The notes below the pieces were generated by a model. The model made no database searches. It was not told where the DNA came from and saw nothing but the letters and a program-made list of their open reading frames with translations. From NCBI GenBank assembly GCA_964438445.1, contig CAYTLV010000001.1, positions 22,763 to 63,539 on the forward strand: a stretch of DNA of 40,777 nucleotides. Reading direction: 5' to 3'. Shown here piece by piece: positions 15,199 to 37,777 of this stretch. Made by a program: the position numbers and the translations under genes. Position 1 is the first letter of the stretch. Each line of letters starts with the position of its first letter. The stretch is from an uncultured bacterium. GTDB lineage: Bacteria > Fidelibacterota > Fidelibacteria > Fidelibacterales > Fidelibacteraceae.

Positions 15199-15260
15199 AG
15201 ACAACTTGGCGAAGAACAAATAACTTGTGAATGATTTTTAGCTTGATTACATTTTCAATT

Positions 15261-15917
15261 ATGAAAAAGATAATAGTATCCATTACAGTTTTATTTATGG
15301 CCTTTTCGCTATTTTCTGCGGTCGAGTTCTTGGAATTTAATGCGGAATTACAAGGTCTAAATATTCTGCTTTCCTGGTCCACAGCTACGGAGACTGCAAA
15401 TTCAGGTTTTATTCTTGAACGAAAAACTGCTTCACTGGCATCTTGGGAATCTCTTGCCAATTACATGAATGACGATGCATTAGTGGGACAAGGTACCGTG
15501 TCTACACAAAGCAATTATACTTATACCGATTCGTTAGTCACTAATGGCGAAACCTATTTCTATCGTATTTCTGGTATAGATTATGCCAATAATATTGGCT
15601 TACTTGACAGTCTTTCAATTATGGTGGGGGAGGTTGGAATTAGACCAGTGGTTCCAGGCGATTTTATATTAACCGTATATCCAAATCCGTTTAACCCAAG
15701 AGCAGTAATCAGTATGCACTATGCTGTAGGTAGAAATACCGTGCTCAATATATATAATATTCGCGGAATATTGGTTGACCAGTTGATCAATGGTTTTGTT
15801 GAAAGCGGAACACATGAAATGATATGGGATGCATCTAATATGCCTAGCGGCGTTTATATTGTGAAGATGCAAGCAGGTGAATATTTACATTCACGGAAAA
15901 TAATCCTAATGAAATAA
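15261..15917 (+). CDS. small secreted FN3-like protein with a canonical T9SS type-A C-terminal sorting domain
   Basis: Signal peptide MKKIIVSITVLFMAFSLFSA (ATG 15261 preferred over the track start 15231). C-terminus YPNPFNPRAVISMHY...SGVYIVKMQAG...RKIILMK. The only plus-strand gene in the window. Confidence 0.75.
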   Translation: MKKIIVSITVLFMAFSLFSAVEFLEFNAELQGLNILLSWSTATETANSGFILERKTASLASWESLANYMNDDALVGQGTVSTQSNYTYTDSLVTNGETYFYRISGIDYANNIGLLDSLSIMVGEVGIRPVVPGDFILTVYPNPFNPRAVISMHYAVGRNTVLNIYNIRGILVDQLINGFVESGTHEMIWDASNMPSGVYIVKMQAGEYLHSRKIILMK

Positions 15918-16240: not shown

Positions 16241-19200
16241 TTATTTCAAAAAGATCATCTTTGCTTTTCGGATCTCATTCCGTGATTCTAGAGAATAAAG
16301 ATATATTCCGCTCGAAAATCCGTTCATATTTATATTGACTTTATTCATGCCATATTCGGGATTTGCGATTTGTCTATTCAGGACAAGTTTTCCATCTAAA
16401 GAATAAATGCGAAGATCCAGTGGTGTAATGTCGTTAATTCTATAGCTAATCGTTGTCATGGGATTAAATGGGTTCGGAGCATTTCCGATCAGTTCAAATT
16501 CAAATTCTTCGGGGAAACTAATATCATCAATGCCTGTTAGTATTTTTGTAATTGAGCCTTTTCTGTCAGCTGAACCACGATGCATAGACCAATAAATTGT
16601 ACCCGCAAAGTTCTTTAAATCGATCACGGATAAGCCGGAGTAATTACCTGCGATCAGATCATTATCGCCATCATCATCGATATCTGTTACAGCCAGTCCG
16701 GATTTTGATAACAATCCGGTATTAAGAGGATAGCCTTGGACCCTATTGCCTTCCATGTCGAAAGCATAAATATAACCATCATTTCCCATGGCAAGAATTT
16801 GTGCTTTATTTTCTGCATCATCAAGCACATCAACAAGTGCCAATGTCTGATCAATTCGACTTACTCTTTGGGGCCAGTTGTTTTCCAAGGTACCATTGAG
16901 AACATCGATCTTATAGATATCTCCGGATGTTGTACCAAAGAATGCAAAAATATCGTCTCCACTTACATAGATGGCCGGAGATGCATAAATAGCTCCAAAT
17001 CCATCAATCATAAATCGTTGTGTCCCATTAAGATCAAAACCATACATATCGCCATTATCGTTCCCAATTAAAATGATAGCCGAATGATCTCCCGTAAGAA
17101 TAACCTGAGGTTCTGATGTAATAGAACCCGATGTACTGACGGGCCATCCAATGGGGGTCGTTCCGTCAGCCAGGACAATCGAACATTGCCCGCTTTTATC
17201 GCCATAAACAATATCATCAAGTCCGTCAGCATTTACATCTGCCAGTGAAACACCACCATGCAGGAGCTGTCCCGTTGCATGTGGAAATGTTGTGACATCC
17301 GTGCTGTCGTGATTTAAGGCATATATGTTTTGATCCCAGGAGCCAACAACCACTTCGAGCTCAGGGTCGTTATCTATATTTCCGATTGCCGGAGTTGCAG
17401 TAATAAATAAATTAGCATGTCGTGTCCATTCACGATTTCCCATTACATCAACAACCTCAATTTTTTTATTGAAAAATGACGTTGTAACGATCTCCAAGGT
17501 ATCATCCAAATCAATATCGGCAACAGCAATTCCACCGAGCTGTGAACCGAGAGTTATCGGGAATCCATCAAGGGTATCACCGGTATAGTTGACTATATAC
17601 AATTCTCCACTTTTATCTCCAAAAATGATCTCCTGTTTCCCGTCGTCATCTATATCAACGAACAAGGGAGAAGCTTCTACGGCAGTACTTGCGTAAAAAG
17701 GAAAACCTTTTTGATCTAGAGATAAAGAAACATCAAGAAGAATGGTTTTTTCATAGGGCAATTCACCGGAGTCATTTGCTATTAGAATCAATTCAAAATC
17801 ATAATTTGCCGGCATTAATGTATTGGAAAATTGGATCATAAATCCATTATTTGTATTTGAAGCATTTGTGTTTTCGGGAATTGATGCCCATGTCCCGATA
17901 CTATCCAGGATCGTGATTTCTTCATTGCTTGAACGCAAAACACCCTGAACATTTGAGGCTGTTGTCCAACCGGTATCGTTTTTTAATTCAACAATAAGAT
18001 TGATCGTTTCACCGGGATTCAGGACTGAATCACCATCATCGTTTAGAATACTTTCACTTTGATCCATATATGATAGTTTTGGCCATTTATCGAAAATCAA
18101 TGCTTTTAAAATATTCACTCGGCCTGTGCCCAATTGTCCTTCATAACCCGGATTGAGATGATCGATGGGGTCTGTATGAGATAGCATGCGATCTACCAAC
18201 CAGTCATTCGTGCTGTCAGGATAAACAGATTTTAAAAGCGCAAAACAAGAAGCAACCATGGGTGATGCCATAGATGTCCCCATTAGATATGCATAGGAAT
18301 TTTGTTTTGTTAAATAAGTACTGAGCATATTCTCGCCAGGTGCGGCAATATCTACTCCGTAAAAATTATTAGCAGGATCTGCTTCTCCATAACTTGCCCA
18401 AGAAAAGCGGTCTTGTGAACTTACCGCTGTAACCGATACGACATTATCATACCCAGAGGGGTAGTGAGGATCATCTTGTTTAATGCCCTGATCTTCATCA
18501 GCACCATTTCCCGCCGCCGCAACAATAAGTGAACCATAAGTATTATATGCCGTATTAATCAAAGTCTGAGAATATGAACTATAGCCGGGGCCACCCCAAG
18601 AGCAATTGATAATATCTGCACCTGCATGTGCAGCATACATGATACCATCCCATCCGGTGTTAATGGTTCCTTCAGTCTCATCTCCGGTTGCTTTTACTGC
18701 CATAATGGAAATATTATATGCAATTGAGGCAACACCAATACTGTTATTGGAAGTTGCTCCCACGAGTCCGGCAACATGTGTTCCGTGACTATTATTCGTC
18801 ACCATGGGATCTCTGTCATCGTCCGCTGTACCCACAGATTCATCCGTATCCCATCCTATAATATTGTCAATATATCCATCTCCATCATTATCACTACCAT
18901 CGGCCAATGGCGAATTTGTAGATACAACATCCTGTAAATTGCTTTTACCATCCCCGTTAAGATCACCGCAGAAACTGACAGCTTCATTAGCGCTAACATA
19001 TCCGTCAGAATTTCCATATGATTCATCTATAAGCGTTGCATATGCGGTGATTTCATCCTGGTTGATCCAAATATTTTTCCAAAGATCTGGGTGTGTGTAT
19101 TCAACACCATCATCCACAACAGCAACAACAATATTGCGATCACCGGGTATTTCTCCCGCTTCAAGATCCCAAAGCTTCCAGGCGTCTTTAGCCTGAGATT

Positions 19201-19627
19201 TTGCAAGAAACCATTGATTTCCGATCAAGGGATCATCGGGTATTGCATGGGTGCGCATAATAGCTTCCCGCTCAGTTCCGGTGATAGCAGGCGATGAGTT
19301 TTTAAATTCCGAGATCAACGCCAATGGAGCCGGAACATCATGATTAGTTGTCAGGCGATAGATACGATTTAAATATACTTCACCATCATGATCGCTGGCT
19401 TTTGCATTTGGTAACCACGGTTCTATTTTTACAACATCATATTTCTTAATTATTTTATTTAATTCGGGGTAGGGCGTATTCAGATTTTTGCATTGTCCAA
19501 CCGTTAGAACTTCCTCATCTTTATCCAAAGAAAAAAGAAATTTATCGGCATAGTAAGATGGCACTGTGGCCATGAGCAGACTGATTGACAGCAATAATAT
19601 TGAGAGTAGTTTTGGTGTTCGTTGCAT
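16241..19627 (-). CDS. secreted subtilisin-family (S8) serine peptidase with C-terminal FG-GAP/VCBS beta-propeller and T9SS type-A CTD
   Basis: Signal peptide. Catalytic Asp VAVVDDGVEYTHPDL, His HGTHVAGLVGA, Ser GTSMASPMVAS. At least six D-x-D/N-x-D-G...(I/L)(I/V)xG repeats (e.g. DIDDDGKQEIIFGDKSGELY, DVNADGLDDIVYGDKSG, DIDDDGDNDLIAGNYSG). CTD is APNPFNPMTTISY...SGIYLYSLES...KMIFLK. Confidence 0.9.
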   Translation of the reverse strand: MQRTPKLLSILLLSISLLMATVPSYYADKFLFSLDKDEEVLTVGQCKNLNTPYPELNKIIKKYDVVKIEPWLPNAKASDHDGEVYLNRIYRLTTNHDVPAPLALISEFKNSSPAITGTEREAIMRTHAIPDDPLIGNQWFLAKSQAKDAWKLWDLEAGEIPGDRNIVVAVVDDGVEYTHPDLWKNIWINQDEITAYATLIDESYGNSDGYVSANEAVSFCGDLNGDGKSNLQDVVSTNSPLADGSDNDGDGYIDNIIGWDTDESVGTADDDRDPMVTNNSHGTHVAGLVGATSNNSIGVASIAYNISIMAVKATGDETEGTINTGWDGIMYAAHAGADIINCSWGGPGYSSYSQTLINTAYNTYGSLIVAAAGNGADEDQGIKQDDPHYPSGYDNVVSVTAVSSQDRFSWASYGEADPANNFYGVDIAAPGENMLSTYLTKQNSYAYLMGTSMASPMVASCFALLKSVYPDSTNDWLVDRMLSHTDPIDHLNPGYEGQLGTGRVNILKALIFDKWPKLSYMDQSESILNDDGDSVLNPGETINLIVELKNDTGWTTASNVQGVLRSSNEEITILDSIGTWASIPENTNASNTNNGFMIQFSNTLMPANYDFELILIANDSGELPYEKTILLDVSLSLDQKGFPFYASTAVEASPLFVDIDDDGKQEIIFGDKSGELYIVNYTGDTLDGFPITLGSQLGGIAVADIDLDDTLEIVTTSFFNKKIEVVDVMGNREWTRHANLFITATPAIGNIDNDPELEVVVGSWDQNIYALNHDSTDVTTFPHATGQLLHGGVSLADVNADGLDDIVYGDKSGQCSIVLADGTTPIGWPVSTSGSITSEPQVILTGDHSAIILIGNDNGDMYGFDLNGTQRFMIDGFGAIYASPAIYVSGDDIFAFFGTTSGDIYKIDVLNGTLENNWPQRVSRIDQTLALVDVLDDAENKAQILAMGNDGYIYAFDMEGNRVQGYPLNTGLLSKSGLAVTDIDDDGDNDLIAGNYSGLSVIDLKNFAGTIYWSMHRGSADRKGSITKILTGIDDISFPEEFEFELIGNAPNPFNPMTTISYRINDITPLDLRIYSLDGKLVLNRQIANPEYGMNKVNINMNGFSSGIYLYSLESRNEIRKAKMIFLK

Positions 19628-19952: not shown

Positions 19953-22850
19953 CTATTTAAGCAGAGACATCTTCTTAACAGCGGTGAAATCACCTGAAGT
20001 CATGCGGTAGAAATAAACACCACTTGACAATGCCGAAGCATCAAATCTTAGGTCATAAGAACCAGCTGACATATTTGTATTGGCAAGAGTCCGTACATGA
20101 CGTCCGGTGATATCAAAGATATCAATCATTGTCATACCAGCTTCTTCCAATTCAAAATGGATAGTTGTAACCGGGTTGAAAGGGTTAGGATAGTTCTGTG
20201 CCAGCGCATATTCGGCCGGTACGATCTCATCCGTAGCCGTTATATCAATATCGGTATCAAAGTATCCGCGGATCATCGGGTTGCATAGTAAGTAAGAAGC
20301 AATAGATGTCCATCCACCACCCGGTACCTGCATTGTTGCTTTACCTGAATAACCGTCTGTATCGGCACCTAACCATGCGGGATCATCACCCGGGGTAGCG
20401 CCTTTAACTCCAATCCATACACTTTCGCCTTCTTCAAGAACAATACCGCTGCCAGTTACAGTCAGTCCGTCAATGGGAAGGAAAGTGTTCCAGCCGTAAA
20501 TGGCTGTTACCGGAGTTTCGATCCTCAACCATGTGTCACCGGGCATACCTGCGTCATCTATAAAGATCTTAACTTTATAGACATCGCCTGCCCACAAAGC
20601 AGCAAAGCGTAATGCTTCAAGTTTTGCCGGGTAAGTTGAAGGTGTAATCTTTACAACAACCATGGTATCCAGAGCAAGATCGAAATGAGTTTCTGCTTCA
20701 CCATCATCATATTTAGCTTCTTCAACATCTGAAGGTGTTACAAAGATCGATGAGCCATCGCTCAAGAGACTTTCATAATCACCGGCAACTGCCGTCACAT
20801 AGTATTCATATTCAACAAGTGCTTCTGTGCTTGTATCAACAACTGTCATTGCACTAATATCTTCTGCAATTAAATCATATGTTGATTCAGTGGTTACACG
20901 ACGGTAAACATTATAGTTTAATCCACTATACGTAATATCGCCATAGGAACCGGTTGCACCAACGGGTGTTGCATAAGAGGTACCATACATAGCACCGCCC
21001 CATAACAACATGGTTCCACCAGCAGCCCCTGTATTCATAAACATTATAGGGGTTTTCGCTGCGCTTTCCCAATACATCATCACCCAAAATGGACCTGCCC
21101 ATGAGATCTCTTTAGCACTGATGTCAATGCTTTGCATATATTTCACAGGAACAAATGAATCTGAAGCATACAGCATATGAACGCCACCTGTATCTAGCCC
21201 ATATAGTACAATACTGATACTATCTGCACTTATTGGATAGCTAGCAAAATCTAAGCTGGTGAACATCATTGAATCAGCACCCGTTGAGTATTCTTCACCC
21301 ACACCGGCGCCAACATATGTTTCGCTACTAAAGAATGTCCAGGCGGGACCGTAATAAGTACTGCAGTCATCAGTCGTTGTTGCTAGAAATGATCTCATTT
21401 GCTCAGTACTGTTATTTCTATCATTCCAAGTAAGGACAACATCATCACTTGTGTTCATTGCTGCTGCCATGCCCGTAGGAACAGGAAGATCAGCTGCAGT
21501 ATAAACGATAAAATCATCGATCATTAAACCATGTCCAAGCGGTTGATCATCATCAGAATGGAAATAGAAACGGAATTTAACTGTTTTGTTTGCAAACATC
21601 GTTAAATCACAGGCTTCTCCATATACCCATTGGAAATCATACCATGCGGGGATACAATGATTATATACATAATTTATGCCACCATCATCTGCTGACAGAC
21701 CTGTCGGATTTGAAATAGCATTCCAAGTTTCGCCATCATCAGGAGAAACTTCTAAGCGCCAATAATCAACAGCCGGGAAAACATCAAGATCTGCAAAATC
21801 TGCAAAAAATTCGAAATTGCAATAGATGCGTGTTTCCGGTTCACTTGGTAAAGTAATAGATGGAGATTCAAAATAATCTTCCAATCTAGTTACATACGTT
21901 GTATCAGTCATATCATATTCACGCAATACATGTGTATTTGAAGGTAATGAATCTGTTCTGTCCTCTACGGTCCAAAAAGAACCAATAAGGGGATTTAATG
22001 GGTACTGTACCAAGCCATCGCTTGTTGAACCGTTAAATACAGCATTTCCGGCTACATCTATTGAATCAATATACATACCTGTTAAATCAGCATCATCAAG
22101 ACCATCATAGCCACCGTCTGAAGCAAAAATAAAACGTACTATAACGGTATCACCCATATATTCTGCGAGGTTTACTTCGGCTTTTCCACCGAATTCACCA
22201 CCCCAGCCGGGTATACCTTCGCCCCAACCCCAAATATATCCAAATGAATATAAGCTGGTTGCGTTATAGGGTAAGCTATCGGGTTCCATAATTGTCCATG
22301 TGGCACCGCTGTCATTGGAGACCTGAACAAGTCCGCCATCCCAGCCGTCCCAACCTTCATCTTCACCACCGGGCCATTCACAAGCCATTGTCATATCAAA
22401 CGACAAAATGCTATCAGGACCAGCCATGACAACTTCGGGAACTTCCAGTGCTACCAGCCAATTGCTGATATAAATGGGATCACCGTATGAATCATACGTA
22501 CCACACCACCAGAGAGAATCTCCGGTTCCCATATCATCCAGGTGCCATTGTCCTAACGGATCATTCGATCCATCAAAATTTACCCATCCGGGGGCACCGT
22601 CTTCAAAGTCTTCAAAATAAACGACGGTAGCTTCATTGGTAGTATCAACAACAAGAAGCGGAGCTTTTGTTGAGTTGATATTTAATGAACGAACATTTGT
22701 GTCTTCAATAGGTGTTGGTGCAAATGTTGGTACAAATTGCGGCAACGCCTCTCTTGGACTACCTGCGTTTACCTTGAGATCACTTTGAGGAGCTACTGCT
22801 GCAAACAATGCAACACTAGCAATCAATAACAAAGCAACTACACGTTTCAT
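19953..22850 (-). CDS. large secreted protein with two jelly-roll/MAM-like modules carrying Asp-boxes, FN3-like regions and a T9SS type-A CTD
   Basis: Signal peptide MKRVVALLLIASVALFAA. N-terminal FEDFEDGAPGW. Asp-boxes SNDSGATW and SPDDGETW. Module ends VRFIFASDGG...YIDSIDV and FRFYFHSDDD...MIDDFIVY. CTD is YPNPFNPVTTIHF...SGVYFYRMTSG...KKMSLLK. AAGGAG SD. Confidence 0.8.
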   Translation of the reverse strand: MKRVVALLLIASVALFAAVAPQSDLKVNAGSPREALPQFVPTFAPTPIEDTNVRSLNINSTKAPLLVVDTTNEATVVYFEDFEDGAPGWVNFDGSNDPLGQWHLDDMGTGDSLWWCGTYDSYGDPIYISNWLVALEVPEVVMAGPDSILSFDMTMACEWPGGEDEGWDGWDGGLVQVSNDSGATWTIMEPDSLPYNATSLYSFGYIWGWGEGIPGWGGEFGGKAEVNLAEYMGDTVIVRFIFASDGGYDGLDDADLTGMYIDSIDVAGNAVFNGSTSDGLVQYPLNPLIGSFWTVEDRTDSLPSNTHVLREYDMTDTTYVTRLEDYFESPSITLPSEPETRIYCNFEFFADFADLDVFPAVDYWRLEVSPDDGETWNAISNPTGLSADDGGINYVYNHCIPAWYDFQWVYGEACDLTMFANKTVKFRFYFHSDDDQPLGHGLMIDDFIVYTAADLPVPTGMAAAMNTSDDVVLTWNDRNNSTEQMRSFLATTTDDCSTYYGPAWTFFSSETYVGAGVGEEYSTGADSMMFTSLDFASYPISADSISIVLYGLDTGGVHMLYASDSFVPVKYMQSIDISAKEISWAGPFWVMMYWESAAKTPIMFMNTGAAGGTMLLWGGAMYGTSYATPVGATGSYGDITYSGLNYNVYRRVTTESTYDLIAEDISAMTVVDTSTEALVEYEYYVTAVAGDYESLLSDGSSIFVTPSDVEEAKYDDGEAETHFDLALDTMVVVKITPSTYPAKLEALRFAALWAGDVYKVKIFIDDAGMPGDTWLRIETPVTAIYGWNTFLPIDGLTVTGSGIVLEEGESVWIGVKGATPGDDPAWLGADTDGYSGKATMQVPGGGWTSIASYLLCNPMIRGYFDTDIDITATDEIVPAEYALAQNYPNPFNPVTTIHFELEEAGMTMIDIFDITGRHVRTLANTNMSAGSYDLRFDASALSSGVYFYRMTSGDFTAVKKMSLLK

Positions 22851-22882: not shown

Positions 22883-23929
22883 TTATATTCCTAATTGAAT
22901 GCTTACTTGGTTTACGAGCCCTAAGACTCCATAATTTACTATAGCATAATCAATATTCAAAGGCATACTGTTAATATCAAGATTTAGTCCTACACCTGCC
23001 GAAAAAGTGGTTTCATCATAATTTAAATGATAACCGGCCCGAAATGCGAGCAATTCATTGTATACATATTCCAATCCGGTATTAAAACGAAGGAAATGAT
23101 CCAGCGGATCATTAGCGTCAAATGACAAACTAATGCGATGGTTTGGATTCTTGATGATCTCGCTGTTCGGACCCAAAATATCCACAAGAATTCCCATACG
23201 GAAAGTCAAGGGTAGTGACCATTCCTTAGTATTTAGCCTTGCTTCAGTTTCGGGATTGCCTTCATAAAGTGGATCCGTATCTACATCAATGTTCAGATCG
23301 GGACCATCAAATTTAAATTTTGTGCTAAAGTTGGTAATTGCCATTCCAAGTTTAATACCAAGAATACCTGTGTCAAACTGTGAGCCGATATCAAATCCAA
23401 AAGTATTTGCCGTTTCACGCCAAATTGTTTCATTGACAAATTTAGCCGTGCCACCTACACTCAGGCGATCCGTCAGCTTCCGGGCATATGATATACCAAT
23501 TGCAAGATCACTGACCGAAAAGAACTCTCCTGAACCCTCAGGGAAATCCAATGTTGTAACTTCCATCTCACCGGAATTTAAATACGTAACATGAACACCG
23601 AAATAGTCAGATCGACTAATTTGAGTTCCAAATGCAACATACCCATGTTGAATTCCGGCATATAGAGATGTGTAAGTCCCATAAAACGATTGTTGGCTTA
23701 TCTTTGCCAAACCTGCAGGATTCCAGAACAGGGCGGACATATCATCCACACCGGCCACATAAGCGCCACCGAGTGCGGCTGCCTTCGCGCCCACTTCCAG
23801 TTTTAGGAATTGACCGGCATGCGTTCCAACTTTGGAAATGTCCTCGGGAATATCAATTTCCTGAGCAAATCCAATTCCTGCAAACAGCAGTGCCAAACCT
23901 ATAATTAATGAACGCTTCATTTTAATCAT
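22883..23929 (-). CDS. PorV/PorQ-family outer-membrane beta-barrel protein (cassette B)
   Basis: Signal peptide, then GTHAGQFLKLEVGAKAAALGGAYVAGVDDMSALFWNPAGLA, which matches the PorV/PorQ N-terminal signature as I remember it. Alternating beta-strand pattern to the C-terminus. AAGGAG 7 nt upstream of ATG 23929. Confidence 0.72.
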   Translation of the reverse strand: MIKMKRSLIIGLALLFAGIGFAQEIDIPEDISKVGTHAGQFLKLEVGAKAAALGGAYVAGVDDMSALFWNPAGLAKISQQSFYGTYTSLYAGIQHGYVAFGTQISRSDYFGVHVTYLNSGEMEVTTLDFPEGSGEFFSVSDLAIGISYARKLTDRLSVGGTAKFVNETIWRETANTFGFDIGSQFDTGILGIKLGMAITNFSTKFKFDGPDLNIDVDTDPLYEGNPETEARLNTKEWSLPLTFRMGILVDILGPNSEIIKNPNHRISLSFDANDPLDHFLRFNTGLEYVYNELLAFRAGYHLNYDETTFSAGVGLNLDINSMPLNIDYAIVNYGVLGLVNQVSIQLGI

Positions 23930-23940: not shown

Positions 23941-26900
23941 TTATCGAATAATGGCAAATTTGCCAATGTGTTTTCTACCATCAGGAAGCTCGACAGCGAA
24001 GACATAAAGTCCCGGCGCGATTTCCTGACGATTGATCGTTGTCAGGTCCCATGCTTCAGAATCATCATAGGGATTATTGTGCTCTACCATATTTACGAAT
24101 TCACCGGTTAAGGTAAATATCTTGATCGTACATTCTGTTGGAAGATTGGTAAACAAAAGCTTTTTGGTATACTGACTCTGTTCCCATTGTGCAGACACAA
24201 AATAGGGATTCGGAACTACTTTAATAGCTCCCAGATCATCTTCTGTTAAATTTACTTCCTCACTAAAATCAGCTGCTGTAAATCTAAATTCATCACCATC
24301 TTCAAAAGGTTTGTGTGTTCGGAAGTACAGGGTATCACCCGGAGTAAAGGGGTAACCTGTTGGAGCAAGCAATAAAGTATCCCATATAAATTCAAACGAC
24401 CATGTAGCCATGGGCATGGCTGCAGGATAGCCCGGCACGCCCGTTTCAAAAAAGATTATTTCATCTAAATAGTTGAGCGTATCGTCTTTTGATATTGCTT
24501 CTTCCTTGATCCAGATGGGAACTCTTTCGCCATCCGGTAAACGTATCGCTTTAAATGGGACAGGACCGGCAAAGGCAGGAATGGGAACATTCCAATAAGC
24601 CGTATCTAATATTTCATCCGCAGCCCCAAAAATAATTGCATAATCCGAGGCGGTCGGATAAGGCAAAGTGGAGCGGGGTTCTGTCGTGATATATTTTTGA
24701 CCGGATGCCCATGAAATTGAATCAACTGCTGCTTTTTCAATATTGTCAAATACAACCTGAAGACCATCAAATATTGGACGATAATTTGTGACAACATTGG
24801 GGTCAATATCATTGTTAGCCAATTCACTTACCAGTGTGTCATTCTCGGTCATATCGATCACGGTATATTTGGGAGCGTTAATTTTGGGACCCTTTATGGC
24901 AGGACTTGCAGAGATCGTGATTTTATATTCATGATCCGTTACATTTCCGGGTTCCGCTATTCTAATCAAGGTCTCGGTATTTCCAATAGTGCTGTCACCG
25001 GGAACAAGATTAATATGTGCTTTGATATCGATAGGATAGCGCGACGGCGTGATCCTTACAAATTGCGGAGAAAGAGGTGTCGTCCCTTTGGGATTTTCCA
25101 AGCTTTCCAGTGCATAGGTTGACCATTGATCATCCACATTGGTTGTTGACCAAGTGGTATCATATCTGATCACTTCGTAGACTATACCCGAAGAATCATC
25201 AATAACTTCTTCTGTCGATATTTCAATTGAATAACCAGGTTCAATACCAATATCAAAGGCCGTTACAGCGTAAGTATATTCTTTACCGATCTGAACATCT
25301 TCATCAAGATATTCATGTTGTAGACCGTTATCTGTTCCCAGGTTCATCCATGGCGCCACAGGATCAGGACCGGAAACACCACGGTTATATCGGGCCATAT
25401 CTTCATCAAATGTCAAATCATATTGGGCAAGAGGCTCAAAACCAACTTGTGTTTGATTTACATCTAACACCGGGTCACCCCAGTTCTGACCGCCATCAGT
25501 AGATTTATAAAGACGGTATCCTTCAAAATCCAAATAGCCGGTAACGATATCTTCAGAACTTTCAGCGGCATCATCCCAAACAATACGAACAGCCATTTCC
25601 TCTTTAACGGGATCCCATTCACTAACGGCAGAAACAGTAGGTGCCTGCGGTGCAGAAAAACCCTGATAGCGAAGATCGTACATGATCTGTGCCATATTTG
25701 CATTACGATTAAGATCCGGTACGTTTTCGCCCATGATCACAGCAAATGAGAACATAGCCGTATCGCCCACTGAAAAATCGAATGGACCTGCAGACATCAT
25801 ACAAACACAGTCAAGGCCATCGGGAAATTGTGTTCGAAGACCCTCCATACTATCATAATGCGGATTTAGTTTGCCGCCATTATCAGGATGGAAAAACCAT
25901 ACATCTTCTCTTTCTGTTAAACTGGTCGTATCACCAGCCATCAATTGATACATTAATTCTTCTTTTTTAGGAGATTCGGGTTGCGTACCGTTACCAATAA
26001 ACGGCCCGCCCGAACCTTCCTTATCTGTAACACCGGGTCTATTATACCAATCAAACCAATGCCAGTCTGTTAACCCTAGTTCTTCACCCGGAGCAATATA
26101 ATTTGTCTCATCTACCCATACTGTATCGCTTGCTTGTGGTGTATCAAGTAGTTTAACGGCAGCAAAGGCATCAACATCGAAACGGCCATCACATTCTTTT
26201 TGATCCAGATCGTAGATATAGGCATAATCATAGGTAGCATTATAACCCATCATATCACCATCATTGGTGTTACATGGCCTATATCCGCCGCCGTAATAAG
26301 CAGAAAACATATCTGCGTCAAAATAGAAACCACAGTATGCACCTTTATAATCAAAACCCGCACCATTATTTAAACCGTATTTATCACTTTCGTTCACCAC
26401 TTTCATGGTAACGAACATGATGTCTTCTGCATAAGCACGACCATAAGAATGAACGGTTGCGTAAACACGAGTTCCGGTTGGATACCCATTGTATGCTGAA
26501 ACAGGTTCACGATCGGCGAATTTATCATCAAATTCAAGATAAATATCTACATCAGATGTAAAACGTCCCTCAACTTCTTCACCGTAAGTGGGTGATGATG
26601 GATCGGTATCTACCGCGTACCATCCCGGCCAAAAACGTTCTTCTTCATCTTCATCATTTGTTCGGGTGGGCCAAGATTCGGGAGCAATAGACGTTGCCAA
26701 TAAAGGCCATGAATCATTTTCATCTGTCCATGTAGGTGCAGCATAATCGCCGGCTGTTATATCGCCGGAGAATGTTTTTCCCTTTGATCCCAAAACAACA
26801 TCCCAGTCTGTATTGATCTGGTTTCCCGTGCGGTCCAACCAAGATTCAGAAACTGTAGAACCCCAATAAATGGTGTCGGTTCTCGCAGGATCCGGATGCC

Positions 26901-27207
26901 GGCGATTAGCCCAAGGATAGGCATTTCCGTCTTTATCACTTCCGGGGACTCCGATCATGAAAGATACGTTTGCAAGGTACTGGTAATCACCCCATGCACC
27001 CGCAACATCATCTTGCCAATGATCAACAAAGTTCCCGTAGTTCAAGATTGCTGTTTTAAATTTTCCCTGATCGGCATAACTTTTAGCCCGTTCATAAAGG
27101 GGATTAGCAAATGTTTTTCCAAACTGCGAGCCATATTTATCTTCAAGCGGAATCGCAAGAAGTAAAACTGGTAGTAATAAACATCCTAAGCGTTGAATAT
27201 ATTTCAT
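23941..27207 (-). CDS. 1088-aa secreted protein of unrecognised family with FN3-like middle region and divergent T9SS-like CTD (cassette B)
   Basis: Sec-type N-terminus with no lipobox. Internal landmarks CVCMMSAGPFDFSVGDTAMFSFAVIMG, then VRIVWDD...FEGYRLYKS...YTYAVTAFD. C-terminus VVPNPYF + 13-aa insert + LLFTNLPTECTIKIFTLTGE...GLYVFAVE...GKFAIIR. AAGGAG SD. 11-nt gaps to both neighbours. Confidence 0.8.
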   Translation of the reverse strand: MKYIQRLGCLLLPVLLLAIPLEDKYGSQFGKTFANPLYERAKSYADQGKFKTAILNYGNFVDHWQDDVAGAWGDYQYLANVSFMIGVPGSDKDGNAYPWANRRHPDPARTDTIYWGSTVSESWLDRTGNQINTDWDVVLGSKGKTFSGDITAGDYAAPTWTDENDSWPLLATSIAPESWPTRTNDEDEEERFWPGWYAVDTDPSSPTYGEEVEGRFTSDVDIYLEFDDKFADREPVSAYNGYPTGTRVYATVHSYGRAYAEDIMFVTMKVVNESDKYGLNNGAGFDYKGAYCGFYFDADMFSAYYGGGYRPCNTNDGDMMGYNATYDYAYIYDLDQKECDGRFDVDAFAAVKLLDTPQASDTVWVDETNYIAPGEELGLTDWHWFDWYNRPGVTDKEGSGGPFIGNGTQPESPKKEELMYQLMAGDTTSLTEREDVWFFHPDNGGKLNPHYDSMEGLRTQFPDGLDCVCMMSAGPFDFSVGDTAMFSFAVIMGENVPDLNRNANMAQIMYDLRYQGFSAPQAPTVSAVSEWDPVKEEMAVRIVWDDAAESSEDIVTGYLDFEGYRLYKSTDGGQNWGDPVLDVNQTQVGFEPLAQYDLTFDEDMARYNRGVSGPDPVAPWMNLGTDNGLQHEYLDEDVQIGKEYTYAVTAFDIGIEPGYSIEISTEEVIDDSSGIVYEVIRYDTTWSTTNVDDQWSTYALESLENPKGTTPLSPQFVRITPSRYPIDIKAHINLVPGDSTIGNTETLIRIAEPGNVTDHEYKITISASPAIKGPKINAPKYTVIDMTENDTLVSELANNDIDPNVVTNYRPIFDGLQVVFDNIEKAAVDSISWASGQKYITTEPRSTLPYPTASDYAIIFGAADEILDTAYWNVPIPAFAGPVPFKAIRLPDGERVPIWIKEEAISKDDTLNYLDEIIFFETGVPGYPAAMPMATWSFEFIWDTLLLAPTGYPFTPGDTLYFRTHKPFEDGDEFRFTAADFSEEVNLTEDDLGAIKVVPNPYFVSAQWEQSQYTKKLLFTNLPTECTIKIFTLTGEFVNMVEHNNPYDDSEAWDLTTINRQEIAPGLYVFAVELPDGRKHIGKFAIIR

Positions 27208-27218: not shown

Positions 27219-30104
27219 TTAAAACTCCACTTCTACAAAGAAATCAAGACTTCTCTGATCATCATAATACCAAGGACGATCATAGATGGTTGAACTTCTT
27301 ATACCATCAAGAATATAACCCTCGTCAATACCACCGGGATTGTCCGGAGTCCCTGTACGTGGATAAACGTATAGAGGATTTTCTCTATTGAAGAGATTTG
27401 TACAAACTAAACCAAGTACCAGGCGACTTGAACCAATAATATCAATATACTTTCTAATAGCAAGGTTTGTCGTGTAATAAGCCGGCATACGTTCACTATT
27501 TTGAGGACCCAATTGATCATTGTTCAGAACAGGAGTATAGGGTGCTCCCGAGATCGCCACAAAGGTCAGGTTTGTCATTGTGTTTTGGAAAAGGTTATAT
27601 GAACCGACCGGAATTCCGTATCCCTTGGGAATGCGGAATGTCAATTGTGCACTAAAATCGTGTGTTCGGTCATAATCCTGCAAAACCTCATTCTTCGGCA
27701 TAGTAAGAGGGTTTTCTCCGTTTCGGTAACCTTCCCATGGATCGGAACGGTTTCCTTTCGCCACTGAATAAGTATACTGTATATTGCCGGTCAAGAATTT
27801 ACCCCGGCGTTTTTCAAAGATCATATCCATACCACGAGCTGAACCATAATCATAGTTTACAAAGGTCGTATAGGTTACAGATCCCACACGAACTTGTTCT
27901 GTTGAGTTCATGTTACTGTAATCCTTTGACCAACCAACAACTCCCAGCACATAATTACGTGCTACTTCAGTATTAATACCAAATTCATAACTGGTTACTT
28001 TTTGAGCACTAACATCGGGATTACCAACAAGCGGCAAAGGAGTATTAAAGAATTCATCTAAATTATCGCGCTCATCAATATTGTTATAGATATCGCGATA
28101 AGTAGGATTTTGATAATAAATACCGTATCCGAACGTAAACGTTGCTTTATCTGTAATTACATGTGAAAATCCCAAACGGGGACTCCAAAGAAATTCCCAA
28201 TTAGTCGGAACAAGCACAGAATCCGGAACCCGGGGATCTGCCCACATGGAATCATTTGCGTTGGCTGCGTCAAAACGTAAACCGGCATTGATAACCATCC
28301 AGGGATATTCGATCTTATCTTGAAGATAACCGGCAAATTCTTGGGGAATACGATTATAGTTTTCAGTATAAGGCGTCGATAACCAAGGTAATTGTACTTC
28401 GTCAAAGACAATATCATGTGTCTTATAGTCGAGTCCACTCTTTATCTGATTATGCCTGCCAACCTGTGATGTAAGATCTAATCTATATTCCTGAGTACGA
28501 GTACGAGTATAGTGAAAATATCTATCTGCGCCACTATAGTAATACTCTCCGGAATAATTCTTTAAATTAGGGCTGGCCTGATACTCTATGGTCATTTTTT
28601 CATCAATAAAAGGATATAATATATAAGGTTGGTTGTACTGTTCAGGTGTAAGCCACTCACCCATTTCATCACCATGATGCCAAATGGTATCTGCTCCTGA
28701 GAGCACATACTCAAGTGGAATATAATTTCCTGTTCCATCATCCACGTAAGGAACTTGAGTGCTATCATAGAAATTTTCTAAATAACGCTGTTCTACCCAA
28801 TCGGGGTAACCGTCGCCATCGGAATCATAGTTCCGTACACCCATGGTCATTTCTTGTGTAAAATTAGAATAATTAAAAGTGTAATAGGTCTTGTCATTTA
28901 ATTGATGGCGCCATTCTAAAGCATAGCGTTTTGACACTTTTTCTACTTCATTTTTACCAAGATCATAATAAATATAAACAGGGTCAAACGCCTTATAATT
29001 TGAATTTACATACCAATGCGAAAGATTTAAACGAATCTTTGGCGACACAAGAAAAGTCAGTTTTGAAAATATATCAAATGTATTGTCAAATCCAAATGAA
29101 CGCCATCCTGCAATTGTGTCTAAAGGATTAATGTGATTATCTTCGTTATAATCGCTTAGGGGATCATCCATATCAAAAGCATAATCGTCAAATTCGTATA
29201 CCGCATAAGCGCTATTCGTTTGATCAAAACTGGTCCACCAACGAATTCTATCCGTAAAAAGGGGTCCGCCAAAACCACCTGCGATCTTGGAATAATTTCG
29301 CAACTGATCTTGCTCTGCTGAGACGGGCCCAAAATTACTGCGTTCATAGCGTAGCATTCCGGTAAATTTGCTTGGGCCGGTTTGCGTAACGGTATTGATC
29401 ATACCGGACATTGCATCGCCGTACTCAGCATTAAAAAAACCCGTCTGGAAATCAACCTGCGCTACAGCAAATTGGTTCAAACGCGTACCTTTACCCTTGC
29501 CTCCGTAAAGCGGGTTTTCAAGGTACATACCATCAATCATGAAACCTGTCTCATTGGCTCGACCGCCACGAACATGAATCTGCTCGATACCGCGTTCTTC
29601 AAATCCGGGGATACCCAAATCGGCAGTCTTGATCTCAATAATACCCGATTGCAGTGTATAAACTTCAGTCATATCACGAACGGGAAGATTAAGCACCTGT
29701 TCTGATTCCATGATAATCTTACGTCCAACTACATCTTTTTCAACAGAAGGACGATCTGCAATCACTTCTACAACTTCGCCTTGGACAGCCTCGACTTCCA
29801 TACGAACGTTAATAATAGTTGATTGATCACGAATAACTTTAACACTTCGTTGGATTACTTTTTTAAAGCCGATCATTGTATATGTTACAGTAAATTCACC
29901 GATCGGAAGGTTGATAATATTGTAATAGCCTGTCTGGTCCGCAAAGGTCCCCATATGGGTATCTTCAACCATGATGTTGACACCCATAAGCGGTTCATTG
30001 GTCCCGGCAGCCACAATGGTACCGCGGATAGAACCAACAATATCGCCATAAGCCATGCCAAAAAATAGCAGACAAACTACAAAAAGGATATAACCTTTCT
30101 TCAT
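27219..30104 (-). CDS. TonB-dependent receptor-like outer-membrane protein with N-terminal CarboxypepD_reg domain (SusC/Oar-type; cassette B)
   Basis: Signal peptide. CarboxypepD_reg-like GSIRGTIVAAGTNEPLMGVNIMV...GYYNIINLPIGEFTVTYTMIGF. Linker GEVVEVIADRP. Plug IHVRGGRANETGFMIDGMYLENP. Long Gly/aromatic-rich barrel. C-terminal FFVEVEF with terminal Phe. Confidence 0.85.
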   Translation of the reverse strand: MKKGYILFVVCLLFFGMAYGDIVGSIRGTIVAAGTNEPLMGVNIMVEDTHMGTFADQTGYYNIINLPIGEFTVTYTMIGFKKVIQRSVKVIRDQSTIINVRMEVEAVQGEVVEVIADRPSVEKDVVGRKIIMESEQVLNLPVRDMTEVYTLQSGIIEIKTADLGIPGFEERGIEQIHVRGGRANETGFMIDGMYLENPLYGGKGKGTRLNQFAVAQVDFQTGFFNAEYGDAMSGMINTVTQTGPSKFTGMLRYERSNFGPVSAEQDQLRNYSKIAGGFGGPLFTDRIRWWTSFDQTNSAYAVYEFDDYAFDMDDPLSDYNEDNHINPLDTIAGWRSFGFDNTFDIFSKLTFLVSPKIRLNLSHWYVNSNYKAFDPVYIYYDLGKNEVEKVSKRYALEWRHQLNDKTYYTFNYSNFTQEMTMGVRNYDSDGDGYPDWVEQRYLENFYDSTQVPYVDDGTGNYIPLEYVLSGADTIWHHGDEMGEWLTPEQYNQPYILYPFIDEKMTIEYQASPNLKNYSGEYYYSGADRYFHYTRTRTQEYRLDLTSQVGRHNQIKSGLDYKTHDIVFDEVQLPWLSTPYTENYNRIPQEFAGYLQDKIEYPWMVINAGLRFDAANANDSMWADPRVPDSVLVPTNWEFLWSPRLGFSHVITDKATFTFGYGIYYQNPTYRDIYNNIDERDNLDEFFNTPLPLVGNPDVSAQKVTSYEFGINTEVARNYVLGVVGWSKDYSNMNSTEQVRVGSVTYTTFVNYDYGSARGMDMIFEKRRGKFLTGNIQYTYSVAKGNRSDPWEGYRNGENPLTMPKNEVLQDYDRTHDFSAQLTFRIPKGYGIPVGSYNLFQNTMTNLTFVAISGAPYTPVLNNDQLGPQNSERMPAYYTTNLAIRKYIDIIGSSRLVLGLVCTNLFNRENPLYVYPRTGTPDNPGGIDEGYILDGIRSSTIYDRPWYYDDQRSLDFFVEVEF

Positions 30105-30119: not shown

Positions 30120-30152
30120 ACAGGTCGCCCTTCCAATGGAAGGGCGACCTGT
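30120..30152 (-). promoter_or_regulatory. perfect 15-bp GC-rich hairpin (3-nt loop) between the BNR gene stop and the receptor RBS
   Basis: ACAGGTCGCCCTTCC-AAT-GGAAGGGCGACCTGT. On the minus strand it is followed directly by CCTAAAGGGGATTGTATG (SD plus start of the 27219-30104 gene) and has no U-tract. Confidence 0.6.
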
Positions 30153-30167: not shown

Positions 30168-32258
30168 TTATTTTAATAATACTGATTTTCGAGTAACAGT
30201 TACATTATCCCCTGTCAGAGAATAGAAATAAATACCCGAGGACATGTTTGAACCGTCAAGTTCAATTTCATAATGTCCACTTCCTTTATATTCACTGAAA
30301 AGAGTTTTAACTTTTCTACCTAAGGTATTAAATACTTCAAGATTGTATTTACCTGCTTGATGGATATCAAAATTGATCGTTGTAATAGGATTGAAAGGAT
30401 TGGGATAATTTTGTTCAAGCTCGAATTTAGCTGGAACATCAACAAAACCTTCAATTCCACTGACGACTGATGAATAATCTACATCCATGAAATATAAACG
30501 ATTCTTATAATCTTCCGGTACTGCGTCTGAAGTATCATCATCTACAGTATGGGTAGCATAGTCCGGAACCTGATATATAAGATAAACATGATCATCGGTA
30601 GCATCGGGATCAGCATGTGCACAAATTTCATCGAAGTCATCTGTGTTCGTTGCGTTAATCTCTGTCTGCCAAGTTTGACCGGCGTTTATTGAACGTCGAA
30701 CATATATATCATAAGATTTTTTATATAGCAGTGTATCGCCAGGGGATTCGGGGTCTTCTTCTTTATAGATATTACCTTTGGGATAAACGGCGTAAATGAC
30801 ATCAGGGTTTTCGGTGGACGTTGCCATTGCGGGGAAAAAACTTTGCCATGCGCGATCACCATGACCATAAGAAAAACGCCAGGTATTCTGCATACTTGTT
30901 ACAAAAGATACGCTCCAAACTGCTGATTCTGATGCCGGATCTGCACAATAAAGATGATAAAATCCACAATATTCATTTACTGTTGGCATAATATAGCCCG
31001 ACTCTTCAGATTCAGGAATAACCAAACACATAAAGTGAACACCACCATTTGCATCAACAACCACGTCATTATCATATCCGATAAATAGACCCGGGTAATT
31101 TAAAGTATCAAGAATTGCATCTTCAGAACCTGTAAGCTCATCAACGATCACGGTATCTGTACCATTAACAACTTCAAATTGTTGTGAAGGAAGATAAACG
31201 TCAAAAATATTATCATCAAAAATATGGTCCTCAACATAATAATAAGGGACATCATCATCAAAAGATGTTTCACTCCATGTTGCACCATAATCAGTTGTTT
31301 TACGGAATTTAAAGGTGTGATATGCGTTATCCTCAACCATAGTATCAATCCCCGTATGCCAGTACGCAACATTTGCAATATAGCCTGTACCATTATCTGC
31401 AATTGAGATCATAGCATCTGAGGTGGTTGAGCCGTCTGCAGTACCTTCTTCAAAATAGGTCAAAGCATCAAGGATTTTCACAGGTTCCTGAAAGGTAATA
31501 GCTCCGGTCGTGATATCATTTGAGCGGAATAAGTACATGTTATGACTACTAATTGTTCCTGTAACGTCAAATTCGCGCCACGTGGTAAATGTCATATTTA
31601 AATGTCCGGTTCCGCCGTCTTCTTCACAATAGTCCGGGCAACCCATCCACATAGCTTCCGGGTTTGTTGTTACATTACCAATAACCTGGGGTGGGGACAA
31701 ATAGGGAAAACCATATGGCAGTAGTGTTTCATCTACAGAAAATAATGGAAGTGCGTCATTTTCAACTCCACTTTCCAAGCCGGTGTATTCAGTCCACGCG
31801 ATCATAAGACTGTTTCCAGCACCAATGGCAGAAGGATATCTTGCTGCCAATTCACCGGGAGATGTTGCGTTTACATTACTTTGATTTGACCATGTTACAC
31901 CATCGTTCAGACTGTATGCCATTCCAACAACACCAGAAGATGCTTCAATACCGGCCCACTGGCGATAAGCCATAACAAATGTGTTTCCATTATGAGAGAC
32001 AGGATTAGTAACGCCGGAGACAAGTCCAAAACCATTTTTACTTGAATCGATCAATACAGCCGCAAATGCCGGATCATAAGCTGATGCGGATTTCGCGGTA
32101 GCTTTTGATAACTGTTCACTATAGATCTCTCTACCTGTTTCTTTTACAATTCGCTCTACTTTACCTTTGTAGTTTAACGGTAATATTTCCGTTTGAACTG
32201 CAAAAACTGAGCTAAGTAACAACACCGCCACAAGTGTTGCGATAACAATGCGTTTCAT
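30168..32258 (-). CDS. secreted BNR/Asp-box repeat (beta-propeller-like) protein with T9SS type-A CTD
   Basis: Three Asp-boxes: SLNDGVTW, TTDYGATW, SINAGQTW. CTD is YPNPFNPITTINF...SGIYFYSLTGD...RKSVLLK. The track start 32270 is TTG. ATG 32258 (MKRIVIATLVAVLLL) has GGAGG 5 nt upstream. Confidence 0.8.
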   Translation of the reverse strand: MKRIVIATLVAVLLLSSVFAVQTEILPLNYKGKVERIVKETGREIYSEQLSKATAKSASAYDPAFAAVLIDSSKNGFGLVSGVTNPVSHNGNTFVMAYRQWAGIEASSGVVGMAYSLNDGVTWSNQSNVNATSPGELAARYPSAIGAGNSLMIAWTEYTGLESGVENDALPLFSVDETLLPYGFPYLSPPQVIGNVTTNPEAMWMGCPDYCEEDGGTGHLNMTFTTWREFDVTGTISSHNMYLFRSNDITTGAITFQEPVKILDALTYFEEGTADGSTTSDAMISIADNGTGYIANVAYWHTGIDTMVEDNAYHTFKFRKTTDYGATWSETSFDDDVPYYYVEDHIFDDNIFDVYLPSQQFEVVNGTDTVIVDELTGSEDAILDTLNYPGLFIGYDNDVVVDANGGVHFMCLVIPESEESGYIMPTVNEYCGFYHLYCADPASESAVWSVSFVTSMQNTWRFSYGHGDRAWQSFFPAMATSTENPDVIYAVYPKGNIYKEEDPESPGDTLLYKKSYDIYVRRSINAGQTWQTEINATNTDDFDEICAHADPDATDDHVYLIYQVPDYATHTVDDDTSDAVPEDYKNRLYFMDVDYSSVVSGIEGFVDVPAKFELEQNYPNPFNPITTINFDIHQAGKYNLEVFNTLGRKVKTLFSEYKGSGHYEIELDGSNMSSGIYFYSLTGDNVTVTRKSVLLK

Positions 32259-32276
32259 AACAACCTCCAAATTGTT

Positions 32277-33256: not shown

Positions 33257-33287
33257 AAAAAAACCCTCCGCGAAGGAGGGTTTTTTT
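33257..33287 (-). terminator. rho-independent (bidirectional-looking) terminator after cassette A
   Basis: Minus strand reads AAAAAAACCCTCC-TTCGC-GGAGGGTTTTTTT, 22 nt after the stop at 33309. Confidence 0.75.
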
Positions 33288-37745: not shown

Positions 37746-37777
37746 CATTATCTCCTTAACTATACGTTTCATCAATG

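Follow-up and report, generated by a model that had tools for sequence, protein, structure and literature searches.

Background

In the type IX secretion machinery (T9SS) of Porphyromonas gingivalis, the proteins PorZ and PorU are exported with their C-terminal domain (CTD) intact and are anchored on PorQ and PorV, respectively, and neither PorU nor PorV is needed for PorQ and PorZ to form their subcomplex (PMC5121618, PMC10947112, PMC12365241). In these pairs a cargo-like protein with an uncleaved seven-strand CTD is joined to a 14-strand barrel. How do barrels of the PorV/PorQ family recognise their clients, and why do PorZ and PorU retain their CTDs? The present study concerns a window of 40.8 kb (40,777 nt; the window is the whole stretch of DNA that was analysed, and coordinates given without a locus name refer to it) from Candidatus Marinimicrobia (Neomarinimicrobiota / Fidelibacterota, SAR406), in which two giant proteins end in a variant, PorZ-like CTD and are each encoded directly upstream of a PorV/PorQ-family barrel. 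Giant 1 has 1088 aa (23941..27207, minus strand) and giant 2 has 1133 aa when read from a TTG start (34374..37775, minus strand); their neighbouring barrels are referred to as porv1 and porv2.

Another described arrangement of this kind is that of the type-B CTD proteins with their PorP/SprF partners (SprB-SprF in Flavobacterium johnsoniae, PG1035-PorP in P. gingivalis). There, too, a non-standard CTD class goes with a dedicated outer-membrane partner gene immediately downstream, and some type-B cargo genes of F. johnsoniae, like some of the genes described below, are orphans without an adjacent partner (PMC12618676, PMC9143113). Variation is also known among type-A CTDs. The 'long' and 'short' CTDs of Prevotella differ in length; cleavage sites were mapped in both kinds (four long, five short), glycosylation was found on six cargo proteins in all, and AlphaFold-Multimer puts both kinds on general PorV alike (PMC11969387).

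In the literature on Marinimicrobia, Caldithrix or Fidelibacterota with T9SS, and on 'PorV2', no account was found of a cassette made of a TonB-dependent receptor (TBDR), a giant protein and a barrel. In the dark ocean and in oxygen-minimum zones, few uncultured bacteria are as abundant as Marinimicrobia.

Results and Discussion

Variant tails on two giant proteins

The tail of giant 1 (last 92 aa of its open reading frame (ORF), encoded at 23944-24219 on the minus strand) reads PNPYF-VSAQWEQSQYTKK-LLFTNLPTECTIKIFTLTG...GLYVF...GKFAIIR, and that of giant 2 (last 107 aa, 34377-34697) reads PNPYY-AYNELATTPYDQY-VTFTHLPTTATIKIFNLAG...GMYIA...KVMIVQKKQILEYY; all the strings quoted for the two tails in the original prediction are found in the translations. 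The variant CTD of giant 1 (subtype 1) covers 23944..24237 on the minus strand and ends in GKFAIIR; seven strands are predicted for it, the first and second of which are separated by a 13-aa insert, YFVSAQWEQSQYTK. The variant CTD of giant 2 (subtype 2) covers 34377..34715, also on the minus strand, with the 13-aa insert AYNELATTPYDQY and with KVMIVQ followed by the aromatic tail KKQILEYY. Four other proteins of the window (228/218, 1128, 965 and 700/696 aa) end in a canonical tail of the form PNPFNP...SG(I/V)Y...(L/M)K. They had been described as carrying one uniform CTD, and this common pattern is indeed present, but the 228-aa protein has RAVIS and SGVYIV where xTTIx and SGxYxY had been given for all four.

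The two kinds of tails separate clearly on the curated models, whose cutoffs are 23 bits for TIGR04183 and 27 bits for PF18962 (type A) and 35 bits for TIGR04131 (type B). All four canonical tails lie above both type-A cutoffs, with 29.6-41.9 bits on TIGR04183 and 34.7-46.5 bits on PF18962. Giant 1 is below them (16.1-17.4 and 14.1-15.2 bits), and so is giant 2, which has 17.5 bits on TIGR04183 as a full protein, 22.1-22.3 bits as a tail alone, and 13.7-14.1 bits on PF18962. On the type-B model giant 1 reaches only 14.5-15.5 bits and giant 2 gives no match; with downstream genes of the PorV/PorQ family and not PorP/SprF-like, membership of type B was rejected. With a hidden Markov model (HMM) of the variant CTD made from homologs outside the window, giant 1 reaches 139 bits and giant 2 reaches 48, against 4-16 bits for the canonical tails. 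Scored across subtypes, the two giants have 48-66 bits and the canonical tails at most 16. When all ORFs of the window were scanned, the variant tail was found on giants 1 and 2 only, as had been claimed.

A conserved family of two subtypes

Is the variant tail more than a peculiarity of two genes? When the variant HMM was run on every ORF of 84 related loci (L001-L084), the scores fell into two groups, 95 ORFs at 111-149 bits and the ordinary CTDs at no more than 30, and none lies between. This distribution and the type-A scores of the six tails in the window bear out the prediction of a distinct CTD subclass. In a library of 1.84 billion representative proteins, a search with the profile gave 4,282 clusters at E<=1e-10, and those carrying a taxon name belong to Marinimicrobia and Calditrichota. 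Nearly all of the 150 best library matches listed reach to the C-terminus or close to it, and the bodies that bear them have ~700, 1000-1200, 1450-1650 and 2283 aa. The members share a conserved insert of 12-13 aa after PNPY, an FTxLP motif and an H...W(D/N)L motif, and have subtype-specific termini. The variant tail is a discrete, conserved family of two subtypes with thousands of protein clusters, and nearly all proteins bearing it are at present annotated as 'hypothetical'.

For giant 1, 231 homologs were found at E<=1e-5 among 8,000 candidates scored, none of them with a Pfam domain. Those bearing names are all 'hypothetical protein' and come from Marinimicrobia, from 'FCB group' bins and from Calditrichota, including Caldithrix abyssi (ortholog P0074/L001). 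The C-terminal consensus of subtype 1 is VVPNPY-[13 aa]-FTxLPxxCxIxI(F/Y)TxxGExV...H...W(D/N)L...N(R/N)QE(V/I)APGLY(V/I)(F/Y)xVE...GKFA(V/I)(I/V)(R/K). Giant 2 has >1,700 homologs, and the consensus of subtype 2 is NVFPNPYY-[12 aa]-VTFTHLPxKATIRIFNLAG...SQFxxWDLxN...LPVASGMYIAxIDMP...K(V/I)LKxx(I/V)(I/V)Q-xxQIL(E/K)(Y/F)(Y/F). The last eight residues of this consensus, xxQIL(E/K)(Y/F)(Y/F), form an extension after the last strand that is conserved in the giant-2 type (34377-34400, minus strand; 108 homologs). KKQILEYY, which had been taken for an extra tail of one copy, is therefore the conserved aromatic C-terminal extension of subtype 2 and occurs family-wide. A minority of giant-2 homologs terminate in ...VVRGGIY instead. 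The aromatic ending is reminiscent of the beta-signal of outer-membrane proteins, or of an extra strand for beta-augmentation.

The domain is also met in other settings. A few very long proteins, P0241 (2295 aa), P0252 (2194 aa) and P0292 (2417 aa), have 11-15 internal tandem copies matching the core of the variant-CTD profile (positions ~20-85), which indicates that a related immunoglobulin-like (Ig-like) module also serves as a repeat unit. In locus L087 (1980-5061), a 699-aa protein with a giant-1-type CTD (71 bits, a longer CTD insert, end GKFVIIR) is flanked by a TBDR on one side and a porv1-type barrel on the other, with a solo giant-2 homolog 1.9 kb further downstream; the 699-aa protein is another body type bearing the giant-1-type tail.

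Fold and likeness to PorZ

AlphaFold2 predicts the canonical seven strands for the variant CTD, with a confidence (pLDDT) of 82.8 for the full-length model and 88.5 for the CTD-only model. According to the models and alignments, the variant tail is a seven-strand Ig-like beta-sandwich at the extreme C-terminus in which the T9SS motifs B (I-x-I-F-x-L-x-G, with conserved G), D (G-x-Y; GLY/GMY) and E (K-x-x-x-x-R/K/Q, with the basic residue of the last strand) are kept. In this, and in the PNP at strand 1, it is like the canonical type-A CTD (TIGR04183 / PF18962). The unlike features are the scores of the window giants below the cutoffs, the insert, FTxLP and H...WDL, the termini GKFAVIR or ...QILEYY, and the dedicated barrel. 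Although its sequence is conserved, the insert of subtype 1 has pLDDT <50 in the full-length model, as could be expected of a segment that becomes ordered only when it meets a partner.

To which known CTD is the variant closest? The best NCBIfam match of both excised tails is the C-terminus of the PorZ model NF052228 (21-31 bits, positions 662-757 of 757). Next in order for giant 1 are TIGR04183 with 16.1 bits and the C-terminus of the PorU sortase model with 13.8 bits, and the excised tail of giant 2 has no match to the PorU model. The PorZ model matches none of the four canonical proteins of the window, and it matches 43 of 44 giant-2 and 17 of 44 giant-1 homologs. When a CTD profile was compared with all 177,635 distinct PDB sequences, only PorZ (5m11, E 0.0096) and PorU (6za2, E 0.085) were found at E<1. 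The alignment with PorZ pairs GKFAVIR with IRFAVIR and EVWDLRT..VAPGLYVYVV with VKWNARG..VASGVYAVAV, and has a Cys at the same position of strand 3. The predicted fold agrees: in a Foldseek search with the CTD model the PorZ CTD comes first (E 8.6e-7, query-normalised template-modelling score (TM) 0.80, root-mean-square deviation 2.4 Å over 98 columns, 24% identity), and TM is 0.55 to PorU and 0.49 to the translocon-bound cargo CTDs RemZ and RemA. The variant CTD is thus closer in sequence and fold to PorZ and PorU than to cleaved cargo CTDs. Within the T9SS type-A CTD superfamily it forms a specifically PorZ-like branch, derived from type A and not analogous to type B.

This result changes the precedent for the locus. 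The original prediction had pointed to type-B CTDs with their PorP/SprF partners, but a tail that keeps the type-A motifs and fold and is closest to PorZ fits better with PorZ-PorQ and PorU-PorV. Unlike type B, the variant CTD fails TIGR04131, is ~95-107 aa long, and has a partner of the PorV/PorQ (FadL-like) family. Note that the likeness to PorZ does not extend to the whole protein. The PorZ equivalog NF052228 describes two beta-propellers plus a CTD and asks for at least 260 bits over the full length; the giants have 15-31 bits, at CTD positions 662-757 only. Because the match is confined to the CTD, the giants were rejected as PorZ orthologs, and their bodies are unrelated to those of PorZ and PorU.

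The Cys of strand 3 is near-invariant in the giant-1-type CTD (LPxxCxI; Cys1026 of giant 1, 24130-24132) and aligns with the Cys of P. gingivalis PorZ (LQAGCSV); the giant-2 type has Ala at this position. A disulfide between this Cys and the barrel was considered and rejected because porv1 has no Cys.

Might the C-terminal domain have nothing to do with T9SS? It could be a structural Ig module, FlgD-like or Fn3-like, and giant, barrel and TBDR could be assembled via another route. Ig-like folds are common, domains of CopC, FlgD and Fn3 also stand in the Foldseek list, with TM of about 0.5, and the few proteins with 11-15 tandem copies of a related domain would fit such a module. The position at the extreme C-terminus in almost all of the 150 best library matches listed argues against it, as do the T9SS motifs and the PorZ-like terminus. 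What is more, the giants have a Sec signal peptide but no lipobox or barrel, hence they need an export route across the outer membrane, and they lie amid genes of canonical T9SS cargo and adjoin PorV/PorQ-family genes. We regard this explanation as highly improbable.

Pairing with PorV/PorQ-family barrels

The gene of porv1 (348 aa; 22883..23929, minus strand) begins 11 nt downstream of giant 1 and that of porv2 (342 aa; 33309..34337, minus strand) 36 nt downstream of giant 2. Both barrels belong to the PorV/PorQ family by NF033709 (cutoff 90), with 205.2 bits over positions 2-324 of 326 for porv1 and 147.9 bits over positions 7-323 for porv2, so the two variant-CTD genes do sit directly upstream of a PorV/PorQ paralog, as originally stated. 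The equivalog models of PorV, PorQ and PorV2 (NF033710, NF033711 and NF052325; cutoffs 250, 220 and 325) give only 84, 105 and 78 bits for porv1 and 62, 69.5 and 78 bits for porv2. A bona fide PorQ is encoded in L085 (14011-15018; 238 bits on NF033711 against the cutoff of 220), a locus that also has a giant-2 cassette, and this shows that parts of the canonical attachment complex coexist with cassette barrels. The cassette barrels, being below the equivalog cutoffs with a separate true PorQ in L085, are therefore additional, cassette-specific paralogs. The PorQ gene of L085, from a metagenome-assembled genome of Calditrichaceae, lies 2.5 kb downstream of the cassette, beside amidase and racemase genes.

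On the other side, a TBDR-like protein is encoded upstream of each giant: TBDR 1 (961 aa; 27219..30104, minus strand) 11 nt upstream of giant 1, and TBDR 2 (999 aa; 37778..40777, minus strand) directly upstream of giant 2. Both have CarboxypepD_reg above the cutoff, and Plug (cutoff 23.9) scores 33.7 in receptor 2 and 23.2, just below the cutoff, in receptor 1. Neither reaches the SusC/RagA model TIGR04056 (cutoff 368): receptor 2 has 43.8 bits, in the N-terminal region only, and receptor 1 has no match.

How general is this gene order? For the giant-1 type, one genome per species was scanned (185,579 species) with an alignment of the giant-1-type CTD. Of the 225 loci confirmed in this way, 80 were analysed, and together with L001, L002 and L004 these provided 80 variant-CTD genes with enough downstream sequence. 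A PorV/PorQ-family gene follows immediately in 72 of these 80, and a TBDR stands immediately before 61 of 79. For the giant-2 type, metagenomes were scanned and 80 of 559 confirmed loci were analysed; the barrel is next in 73 of 73 (72 of 73 before one ORF-start artefact was corrected), and the TBDR is immediately before in 49 of 49. Among canonical-CTD genes of the same loci, such a barrel is next in none (0/122). The subtypes of CTD and barrel agree as well, since giant-1 tails go with porv1-type barrels in 72 of 72 pairs and giant-2 tails with porv2-type barrels in all 72 scored pairs. Seen from the barrel, each PorV/PorQ-family ORF with room upstream in the ORF sets L001-L084 and L089-L168 sits behind a variant-CTD gene, two seeming exceptions being artefacts. 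The cargo-specific pairing of CTD and barrel that had been proposed is therefore borne out by matched subtypes in every pair and by the paralog status of the barrels. Adjacency itself holds throughout the giant-2 type and for about nine tenths of the giant-1 type; the remaining giant-1-type genes are taken up below. Of the apparent exceptions to adjacency, L105 and L025 were discarded as artefacts of ORF starts or frameshifts.

The pairing with the TBDR is looser. Most of the genes lacking it belong to a second giant-barrel pair that adjoins the first on its downstream side (TBDR, giant, barrel, giant', barrel), and what these second giants have in common with giant 1 is limited to the last ~137 aa and a Fn3/BNR-like domain in the middle. 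With the CTD-barrel pair persisting on different bodies (at least three types) and without a second TBDR, the pairing of CTD and barrel is tighter than that with the TBDR.

One explanation for such data is that the barrel is a dedicated shuttle only, which takes the giant from the translocon and passes it on in the manner of PorP/SprF, the cargo being later cleaved or released. It is established for type-B CTDs of F. johnsoniae that the gene of a cognate shuttle can lie directly downstream of the cargo gene (PMC12618676, PMC9143113), and the giant-barrel loci have the same gene order with near-obligate adjacency. But the barrels are of the PorV/PorQ family, the CTD is not recognised by the type-B model, and its nearest relatives, PorZ and PorU, are stably anchored and not merely shuttled (PMC10947112, PMC12365241). 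The type-B carrier has itself been reported as an anchor (PMC9143113). A pure shuttle is for these reasons quite unlikely.

A repeated unit of CTD end and barrel

In six tandem loci from different projects with the order giant, barrel, giant', barrel (L048, L075, L076, L038, L039, L044), the two barrels are 100% identical as proteins. At the DNA level, the two barrel genes of L048 (10308-11336 and 14932-15960), L075 (10303-11334 and 15711-16742) and L076 (7093-8124 and 10291-11322) have 0-2 mismatches in ~1,030 bp. On the upstream side the identity takes in a further 102-107 bp, which are the last ~34 codons of the preceding CTD, and it ends exactly at the stop codon of the barrel gene. The result is an exact direct repeat of ~1.14 kb in which the barrel gene is joined to the 3' end of a CTD, and the remaining part of the CTD is 62-71% identical. 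The pattern suggests that CTD strands 6-7 and the barrel underwent gene conversion, or were duplicated very recently, as one unit. The 1.14-kb repeats may in part come from assembly collapse.

A proposed mechanism and the evidence against it

A private barrel next to each giant suggests that the giants could be docked on the cell surface in a dedicated way. We think it probable, judging from the gene pairs and the likeness to PorZ, that T9SS exports the giants and that a retained PorZ-type CTD keeps them docked on a private PorQ-like barrel beside the TBDR. In such a mechanism the inner membrane would be crossed via Sec and the outer membrane via the general T9SS translocon. The PorQ-like barrel of the operon would then receive the giant and hold it non-covalently by the uncleaved CTD, by analogy with PorQ-PorZ and PorV-PorU in Porphyromonas; retention of the CTD in the giants is what the gene pairing would point to. 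The conserved insert and the subtype-specific C-terminus would be the likely determinants of specificity for the cognate barrel. Tethered beside the co-encoded TBDR, the giant might serve the receptor at the surface by capturing or processing its substrates, so that the two would be functionally analogous to SusC/SusD but free of a lipoprotein, and in the giant-1 cluster it would act together with the S8 peptidase and the MAM-like protein that are encoded there and presumably secreted by T9SS.

Compared with known systems, the differences are extra barrel paralogs in the operon of the client, giant clients, a TBDR in the module, and a lineage outside Bacteroidota. PorQ and PorV themselves differ from the cassette barrels, which lie below the equivalog cutoffs and share an operon with their client, usually together with a TBDR; and unlike the PorZ-PorQ pairs of Bacteroidota, the cassettes are found in Marinimicrobia and Calditrichota. 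The likeness to SusC/SusD is that an outer-membrane TBDR with N-terminal CarboxypepD_reg is encoded directly upstream of a large, here predicted, surface partner. Unlike in SusC/SusD, the receptor fails the SusC/RagA model, the partner is a Sec/T9SS-type CTD protein and not a SusD-like lipoprotein, and a barrel is present as the third gene. BamG-BamH of the Bacteroides complex for beta-barrel assembly (BAM) also resembles the cassette, as there a FadL/PorV-like 14-strand barrel is the docking platform for a surface protein encoded next to it (PMC12578637), a role that the cassette barrels would share. BamH, however, is a lipoprotein without a CTD, and the BamG model gives only 30 bits (cutoff 250) on porv2.

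Several points weigh against the proposed docking. First, the giant-2 type is at the type-A threshold. NCBI names several of its orthologs 'T9SS type A sorting domain-containing protein', and 6 of 44 giant-2 and 2 of 44 giant-1 homologs match TIGR04183 at cutoff level, taken as E<=6e-5, which is our own estimate of the 23-bit level. Second, since long and short CTDs of Prevotella are handled alike, a sequence variant need not mean a separate route. Third, ~10% of giant-1-type genes have no barrel nearby. The real orphans (L053, L056, L057, L066, L074, L082, L084) are solo giants of ~1040-1060 aa with a full-scoring CTD and with neither TBDR nor barrel adjacent, so that their barrel, if any, is encoded elsewhere. 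Fourth, the pairing counts are not independent events, as the loci are largely orthologous and syntenic; a Fisher P value for the comparison with the canonical-CTD genes is for this reason not to be read at face value, and the matching of subtypes could merely reflect two ancient paralogous operons. Finally, the giant bodies have no Pfam, NCBIfam or convincing PDB match, with only marginal Fn3 in the PDB profile search.

Then could the giants be ordinary type-A cargo? They would have a lineage-specific long CTD and use general PorV, cleavage by PorU and attachment to lipopolysaccharide, and the barrel would be otherwise employed, as a FadL-type channel or a TBDR scaffold. The retained motifs B, D and E and the seven-strand fold allow for this, as do the giant-2 tail less than one bit under the TIGR04183 cutoff, the type-A names of some orthologs, and the cleavage, partial glycosylation and PorV models of both CTD kinds in Prevotella (PMC11969387). 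FadL-family barrels also work outside T9SS, BamG-BamH being an example (PMC12578637). On the other hand, the variant-HMM scores have no intermediates, and the best match of the variant is to the uncleaved CTDs of PorZ and PorU and not to cargo CTDs. A barrel follows the variant-CTD gene even without a TBDR, as in the tandem giant-barrel pairs, and none of the 122 canonical-CTD genes has one. In addition, barrel gene and CTD 3' end have been homogenised together, as a single unit. Ordinary type-A cargo thus appears an unlikely description of the giants.

If docking on a private barrel is true, cargo-specific sorting or anchoring by T9SS would be extended to the type-A/PorV side and beyond Bacteroidota. 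A large natural family of operon-encoded pairs of PorZ-type CTD and barrel would yield covariation data and simple two-gene test systems for the recognition of clients. The conserved module of receptor, giant and barrel, clustered with secreted peptidases, is a candidate route for the capture of polymeric organic matter in Marinimicrobia. A broader scenario can be put forward only tentatively: Marinimicrobia and Calditrichota may perhaps build undescribed machines for nutrient acquisition at the surface, made of a TBDR and a T9SS-exported giant, not a lipoprotein, that is tethered permanently to a private PorQ-like barrel by its PorZ-type CTD. The natural CTD-barrel pairs, thousands in number and of two subtypes that diverge together, would in that case encode the recognition code for the choice of clients by PorV/PorQ-family barrels.

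Giant bodies and gene neighbourhood

Giant 1 consists of a conserved N-terminal domain of ~500 aa, a Fn3/BNR-like middle domain, a variable region and the variant CTD. Both giants have Sec signal peptides, and giant 1 is without a Pfam domain. A Foldseek search with the full giant model found PorZ through the CTD, plus multi-domain matches of low TM (GH94, adhesins) that were not trusted. The database cluster that contains giant 2 has a representative of 1123 aa, 100% identical and covering 99% of the query; the start of giant 2 is therefore probably ~10 codons downstream of the TTG.

The cluster of giant 1 runs on the minus strand from 32,270 to 16,241. Its first gene, conserved as such, encodes the 696/700-aa protein with weak matches to BNR (Asp-box) repeats and a canonical type-A CTD (30168..32270), and is followed by TBDR 1, giant 1 and porv1. 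After porv1 come two further conserved genes for proteins with canonical type-A CTDs, the 965-aa MAM-like protein (19953..22850) and, as the last gene, the 1128-aa S8 peptidase with a beta-propeller (16241..19627). Judged by its gene content, this cluster looks like a locus for protein degradation and uptake at the surface. The six-gene order is kept across Marinimicrobia and partly in Calditrichota, and is also seen in L002, L004, L006-L014 and others. The fourth canonical protein, of 228/218 aa (15231..15917, plus strand), served for comparison of sequences only.

Upstream of this cluster lies the second, shorter cassette, with TBDR 2, giant 2 and porv2. Its three genes are paralogous to those of the first cassette (25-29% identity between the TBDRs, 22-33% between the giants, 30% between the barrels), and the CTD is the best-conserved part between giant 1 and giant 2. 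A terminator-like hairpin with a T-run, matching by consensus only, is located just 3' of the porv2 gene (33264..33276, minus strand) and is likely the end of the second cassette.

Positions 1-15,000 hold housekeeping genes, of which cdaA, folP, ftsH, hpt, tilS, tyrS, rodA, pbp2 and mreC were identified by Pfam; putative mreB, mreD and transketolase genes were read in the same region from gene order and translation. Several possible regulatory features were noticed as well. A perfect palindrome with a 15-bp stem, ACAGGTCGCCCTTCC AAT GGAAGGGCGACCTGT, is at 30120-30152 and takes up most of the 63-nt gap between the gene of the 696-aa protein and TBDR 1, and the 325-nt gap that precedes the S8 peptidase gene contains two further long hairpins, one at 19797-19828 and one at 19843-19880. 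Within the cluster, the palindrome and the hairpins could function in attenuation, termination or processing. Between the two cassettes there is an ORF of 149 aa (32277-32726, minus strand) whose product resembles a transcription regulator of the Lrp/AsnC type by its sequence, and this putative regulator could act on the neighbouring cluster.

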